Part shown: positions 36,586 to 36,792 of the stretch, piece by piece | How the letters are laid out: every line of letters begins with the position of its first letter | Position numbering within the stretch: position 1 is the stretch's first letter | Assembly: GCF_003334305.1 (NCBI RefSeq) | Contig: NZ_QOWS01000008.1 | DNA: 64,000 nucleotides | Direction: 5' to 3' (one strand) | From: Escherichia coli | Lineage (GTDB): Bacteria > Pseudomonadota > Gammaproteobacteria > Enterobacterales > Enterobacteriaceae | Notes under the pieces: generated by a model | The model's input: only the letters and a program-made list of their open reading frames with translations | The model's database searches: none | What the model was told of the DNA's origin: nothing | Translations under genes and position numbers: made by a program

Positions 36586-36792
36586 GAGTCTGTCCTTATT
36601 GGAAAAATTGAGAGGGATGTAACGGTTGGTCATCTCAATCACATTACGCACGCCCCGGGTCATCAGGTCGTTCATCTCCTGGCAAATGAACGCATACTGA
36701 TCAAGGCGGCAGTCCACGTTGTTTTTAAAGCCGGAGAGATCAATATGCAGATGCTCATGGGCGAGGGTGTAACCCGTCGGATCAAAACTCAT
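36586..36792 (-). pseudogene. php: php (phosphotriesterase-homology protein) remnant: 58 N-terminal codons plus 11 junction codons, most of the gene deleted
   Basis: The ORF starts [58 protein letters not shown] (php N-terminus with the HxH metal motif), then reads IPLNFSNKDRL and continues straight into MKKIGVAGL of yhfU. A PTE-family TIM barrel needs about 290 aa; only 58 are present. Confidence 0.8.

Follow-up and report, generated by a model that had tools for sequence, protein, structure and literature searches.

A probable strain-private deletion within php of Escherichia coli A7 and the in-frame fusion of its remnant to yhfU

In the 64,000-nucleotide stretch of Escherichia coli DNA analyzed here (the window), the beginning of php runs without a stop codon into the neighboring gene yhfU. 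This arrangement raises the questions of whether php is incomplete in the organism or only in its assembled sequence, how the two reading frames came to be joined, and whether the fusion is of any consequence. The window is identical at 64,000 of 64,000 bases to positions 4376634-4440633 of E. coli strain A7 (NZ_CP028767.1), the source of which is orangutan feces from the USA. We consider it very probable that A7 carries a spontaneous 682-bp deletion inside php, that this deletion is private to the A7 clone and nulls Php, and that the fusion of the remnant to yhfU is an accident.

The php-yhfU junction and its neighbors

The chimeric open reading frame (ORF) occupies 36232..36792 on the minus strand and encodes 186 aa with a predicted mass of 20.6 kDa, composed of Php(1-58), an 11-residue linker, and YhfU(1-117). 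The first-pass annotation had read the locus as an internal deletion of php fused in frame to a complete yhfU, and both the ORF and its alignment with the intact locus bear this out. Codons 1-58 of php (36619..36792, minus strand) encode residues identical to those of intact Php and include only the HxH motif (His12 and His14). As had been noted from the sequence, this exact N terminus is followed by IPLNFSNKDRL, i.e., linker codons 59-69 (36586..36618, minus strand), which span what is left of the php tail, the spacer of 10 nt between the two genes, and the Shine-Dalgarno sequence of yhfU. The first linker codon, ATC (codon 59; 36616..36618, minus strand), is the deletion junction, at which 682 bp of php are absent; here, A 36618 belongs to the left flank, C 36616 to the right flank, and T 36617 is common to both. 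The remnant of the php 3' end comprises 22 nt (36596..36617, minus strand) and is now in the +1 frame. In this frame, the php tail reads PLNFSN, compared with PSQFFQ-stop when php is intact, and the old TAA stop codon (36596-36598) is sense in the chimeric ORF, in agreement with the earlier proposal that the frame shift causes the php stop to be read through.

The downstream part of the chimeric ORF is a complete yhfU gene (DUF2620; 36232..36585, minus strand) of 117 aa with its own ATG at 36583-36585. Residues 70-186 of the chimera are identical to WP_001297518.1 (YhfU) and to YhfU of relatives with an intact locus; this part is a full-length DUF2620 domain with the invariant columns (e.g., C52-N-T-G-A-G), and PF10941 matches the chimera. 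The yhfU Shine-Dalgarno sequence AAGGA (36593-36597) is preserved together with the ATG, and yhfU has, as previously stated, kept its own ribosome binding site (RBS) and start codon.

The neighboring genes are intact, as had also been claimed. Upstream, yhfW (36789..38015, minus strand), which encodes a protein of the phosphopentomutase family, ends with a TGA stop that overlaps the php ATG, giving an ATGA overlap of the yhfW stop and the start of the chimeric ORF at 36789-36792. Downstream, yhfT (34916..36220, minus strand) is intact and identical to that of relatives, while yhfS (33819..34904, minus strand) is full length and carries a private E334K substitution (SNP at 33905). Relative to strains 2012C-4431 and 120899, this substitution in YhfS is private to A7 and affects the operon that also carries the php deletion.

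For pairwise alignment, strain 120899 (L001), the flanks of which are 100% identical to the window, served as the intact comparison locus. An 869-nt query aligned to 120899 with 484 identical bases on the left and 386 on the right, overlapping by 1 nt, which fixed the end points. The reference php has 292 codons, and the missing length, earlier estimated at about 680 bp of the form 3n+1, is exactly 682 bp (3x227+1). At the junction, the left flank reads ...TTACAT/GGGG and the right flank ...GAAACT/CCCT (slashes mark the end points). The 'at/at' microhomology suggested around 36617-36618 was therefore correct as to a short shared sequence at the junction and incorrect as to two bases, the shared sequence being the single T at 36617. 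Similarly, the lost C terminus given as ...NPSQFFQ is the K-12 form, while the closest relatives of A7 have ...ETPSQFFQ. Over 21 kb, A7 differs from strain 2012C-4431 by three SNPs (33905, 46200, and 46455) and the deletion, and by nothing else; many genomes match this 21-kb region at 100.0% and are longer there by exactly 682 bp.

Origin and distribution of the deletion

A trivial explanation would be that the organism has an intact php from which the assembler lost 682 bp. In favor of such an artifact, the junction is present in only one complete genome, and the assemblies that agree may partly derive from one DNA preparation or read set. However, the exact 186-aa ORF is found on eight contigs, including the complete genome, the NCBI draft GCA_002476345.1 (on a 191-kb contig), and the Logan assembly made from the short reads of SRR10357279; the chimeric protein has three NCBI accessions (UMT20209.1, RCQ09348.1, and HAH8985578.1). 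Moreover, the end points lack repeats that could collapse an assembly, and the flanks are free of errors relative to close relatives. Two of these loci that we compared match the window at 100% over 6.6 and 5.1 kb, including the private yhfS SNP; therefore, they represent one clone whose sequence was put together with different assembly pipelines. Altogether, the recurrence of the same junction in independent assemblies of the clone supports the earlier judgment that the event is real and not assembly noise, and we regard an artifact as highly improbable.

The distribution of php was analyzed in 5,426 complete E. coli genomes, of which 5,075 carry the php-yhfU locus. The first-pass annotation had raised the possibilities that php is normally only ~60 aa long or that the reference has the same junction. 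Neither is the case. Using a full-length php query, coverage was at least 80% in 5,072 of the 5,075 genomes that carry it, A7 being the weakest match at 20%, and full-length php was found in every identity band as well as in further genera. Using a 100-nt junction-centered probe, the junction was contiguous in 1 of the 5,426 complete genomes, i.e., in none but the source strain A7, and the two halves of the probe lay apart elsewhere. Because the junction occurs only in A7 while near-identical relatives are intact, we take the deletion, from these genome comparisons, to be recent and private to one clone.

These data also bear on two other readings of the short gene, namely that the deletion was engineered in the laboratory or that a short php is ancestral and the 292-codon php arose by an insertion. 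The clean junction is compatible with both, and nothing more speaks for them. Against engineering, the junction bears neither a scar nor a cassette, nor is there a palindromic restriction site, and the isolate comes from animal feces; against an ancestral short php, the full-length gene is present in 5,072 genomes and in other genera, and the 292-residue protein is known as a crystal structure. We consider these readings scarcely credible.

Two other genomes with incomplete php have lesions that are independent of the A7 deletion. In RM13745 (NZ_CP044312.1; L011 1224-3522), the yhfW C terminus and the php N terminus are lost, with ~550 bp of unannotated DNA in between, while in PCP06021 (NZ_CM129877.1; L004 1876-2615), php is 740 bp long instead of 879 bp and is annotated as frameshifted. 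Separately, php and yhfU had no megablast match in 351 of the 5,426 genomes, whereas the surrounding 21 kb was matched in all 5,426. A minority of E. coli thus lacks this portion of the yhf cluster, if not more, and some members of the species can accordingly dispense with both genes.

As for how the spontaneous deletion arose, a scan of intact php for direct and inverted repeats revealed none that lines up with the end points; the closest 7-mer common to both ends, ATGTGAT, is offset by 8 nt. The end points share only 1 nt (T), which argues against slipped-strand or direct-repeat deletion, and because they share only this one base, we infer from the lack of homology alone that the deletion would have been made by illegitimate, repeat-independent joining. 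Candidate routes for such joining in E. coli are topoisomerase-associated joining and alternative end joining dependent on RecBCD and LigA. One inverted repeat (L001 3469-3482 with 3852-3865, 86% complementary) was considered and rejected, as it ends 2 nt before the left end, while 300 nt separate its partner from the right one. Likewise, no insertion sequence, transposon end, or foreign DNA was found at the junction, where the left and right flanks directly abut; a junction free of a mobile element argues against a deletion mediated by an insertion sequence or a transposon.

Predicted consequences for Php and YhfU

The deletion removes php codons 59 to about 285. Compared with intact E. coli php, the A7 gene is alike in the first 58 residues, the last 22 nt, the position between yhfW and yhfU, and the ATGA overlap; it differs in that residues 59 to about 285 are absent and only the HxH part of the metal site is present. 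The solved structures of Php (1BF6 and 4LEF) comprise 291-292 residues. According to Buchbinder et al. in 1998 (1BF6), the ligands of the binuclear metal center are reportedly His12, His14, Glu125, His158, His186, and Asp243. In the remnant, only His12 and His14 of these six ligands are left, and in place of a complete (beta/alpha)8 barrel with all metal ligands, only the first strand-helix-strand of the TIM barrel is kept. Consistently, the chimera scores 123.5 bits against the NCBIfam Php equivalog model NF007373, for which the cut-off is 486, and matches only positions 1-75 of 292; on this basis, the remnant falls outside the Php family (NF007373; Pfam PF02126). Because the barrel beyond the first strand-helix-strand and four of the six ligands are gone, A7 is, by its sequence, a Php null, and the missing barrel and the failure against the family model support the earlier claim that Php function is lost.

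The frame geometry of the locus accounts for the fusion. Relative to php, yhfU is read in the +1 frame, in which a stop codon at L001 4150-4152 limits the open stretch before the yhfU ATG to 45 nt. Fusion therefore requires a deletion of length 3n+1 whose right end falls within the final ~35 nt of php. We enumerated the deletions internal to php (n = 381,501) and found that 2.59% give a php-yhfU ORF; among the possible 682-bp deletions internal to php, 33 of 192 do so. We conclude that the fusion is an accidental by-product of the local frame geometry and gene spacing and does not in itself point to a function.

Could the fusion nevertheless have been favored, either by keeping ribosomes running into yhfU-yhfT-yhfS or by altering the extended YhfU? 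That only 2.6% of php-internal deletions fuse the two genes would be in line with selection, as would the predicted unchanged fold of the YhfU domain in the chimera, the existence of a second, independent php-yhfU fusion, and the private YhfS E334K in the same clone. On the other hand, the 2.6% was computed after the fact and is unremarkable for one event chosen as odd, the allele is confined to a single clone without recurrence, and the absence of php and yhfU from 351 of the 5,426 genomes points to genes that are dispensable. In addition, a 58-residue fragment of a TIM barrel is presumably unable to fold alone and was modeled without confidence, and a conserved fusion of the phosphotriesterase (PTE) and DUF2620 domains is absent, with two sporadic clusters among the matches listed. 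A functional or selected chimera is therefore, in our assessment, very unlikely.

The second fusion (P0002) is a 320-aa PTE+DUF2620 ORF in the Logan assembly of SRR31555781 (L010 2723-3963) with the linker (P)LNFSNKDRL and a complete YhfU, and is caused by 1-nt deletions in php at L001 3570 and 4167, the latter in a run of C. In support of the frame geometry above, it resembles the A7 chimera in entering the +1 frame in the final 35 nt of php and in its linker; in contrast to A7, it results from 1-nt deletions and not from a loss of 682 bp, and it occurs in another background with 21 substitutions in php. Its frameshifts may be real or may reflect homopolymer sequencing error. Among the 120 matches listed from 5.8 billion clustered proteins, PF02126 and PF10941 were combined only in P0001 (the A7 clone) and P0002. 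Because these are two sporadic clusters among the matches listed, the PTE-DUF2620 fusions do not appear to form a conserved family. Other sporadic variants of YhfU in E. coli assemblies (P0034 and P0004) are a 161-aa fusion of YhfU to YhfT from which most of YhfT is missing and a YhfU in which seven residues (ALSIAIA) are duplicated in tandem.

The classical example of in-frame fusions of adjacent genes made by deletion is the lacI-lacZ fusions, reportedly described by Muller-Hill and Kania. In both cases, the upstream stop is removed, the downstream start context becomes internal, and the C-terminal partner is complete. The A7 fusion differs from the lacI-lacZ type in that yhfU keeps its own RBS and ATG, making both forms possible, in that it is natural and was obtained without a screen, and in that the chimera is only predicted.

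If the operon is expressed, ribosomes that terminate yhfW at the ATGA overlap would restart on the php ATG, probably in a coupled manner, and continue into yhfU across the former stop codon, the spacer, and the RBS of yhfU. The predicted product is the 20.6-kDa Php(1-58)-linker-YhfU chimera, and native YhfU of 12.5 kDa could still be initiated from its own RBS and ATG. We speculate that continuous translation may spare yhfU-yhfT-yhfS from the polarity of an early stop. The predicted accessibility of the yhfU RBS is 0.50-0.69 in the A7 mRNA compared with 0.46-0.53 in the intact context; it is not reduced, arguing against occlusion of the RBS by a new mRNA structure. Neither promoter-like sites nor terminator-like sites on the coding strand were found in intact php-yhfU, and we rejected the loss of an internal promoter or terminator with the deleted segment.

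When the chimera was modeled with AF2, the pLDDT was 93-97 over the YhfU domain and 31-51 over residues 1-69, which were modeled without alignment depth. Based on this model, the N-terminal extension would most simply be an unstructured or misfolding tail. It may also be that the operon is silent and that neither the chimera nor native YhfU is made. A reading in which the chimera is actually made and matters, either because it is the main form of YhfU, with a floppy 69-residue tail on an RpiB-like domain, or because the deletion was kept for maintaining translational coupling from yhfW to yhfU-yhfT-yhfS without Php, which would rewire an uncharacterized catabolic operon, is one that we find quite unlikely.

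Annotation and operon context

The same DNA is annotated differently in the two NCBI databases, and the locus illustrates this divergence. In RefSeq (PGAP), the remnant AOY58_RS21115 is a pseudogene ('phosphotriesterase-like protein; incomplete; missing C-terminus', partial in mid-contig), and yhfU is a separate gene, whereas in GenBank/nr, the whole 186-aa ORF is a coding sequence for a 'DUF2620 family protein'. The PGAP entry is in line with ordinary strain-specific decay; it stops where yhfU overlaps and leaves the run-on into yhfU unrecorded. The A7 allele is an ordinary strain-private, gene-inactivating deletion that was already flagged as a pseudogene in RefSeq.

Full-text searches of the literature library returned no functional study of the yhf operon, none of this allele, and no mention of the accessions of the clone. 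The finding carries little weight beyond strain A7, in which php is naturally null and the yhfZ-yhfS cluster otherwise intact, and should a substrate of the operon ever be found, A7 could serve as a ready-made php mutant. A7 may be ECOR7 (O85:HN, from an orangutan in the Washington zoo), a correspondence based on host and country only, and ECOR52 is also from an orangutan; if A7 is ECOR7, then a php-null strain is publicly available.

For understanding the operon, the fold of YhfU is probably more useful than the deletion. In an AlphaFold model of YhfU alone (pLDDT 95), the protein is a five-stranded alpha/beta structure with strand 1 starting from residue 2. In a Foldseek comparison with the PDB, the 22 best matches of YhfU were all RpiB/LacAB sugar-phosphate isomerases (TM 0.74, E 1.5e-4). 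In the invariant motif G-A-C52-N-T-G-A-G, Cys52 aligns with the catalytic cysteine of RpiB in a weak hhalign alignment, for which the RpiB sequence was entered by hand. At the sequence level, the relationship of YhfU and RpiB is not significant (phmmer E 0.36-0.67; hhalign probability 3%); the link comes from the fold comparison alone. The modeled fold suggests that YhfU could carry out an isomerase step beside the phosphopentomutase-like YhfW.

Elsewhere in the window, a gene for a RelE/ParE-family toxin and a NadS-family gene are annotated at 62809-63481 on the plus strand, between pckA and envZ. K-12 presumably has no such toxin/NadS pair between pckA and envZ, and the pair looks like a small accessory insertion.
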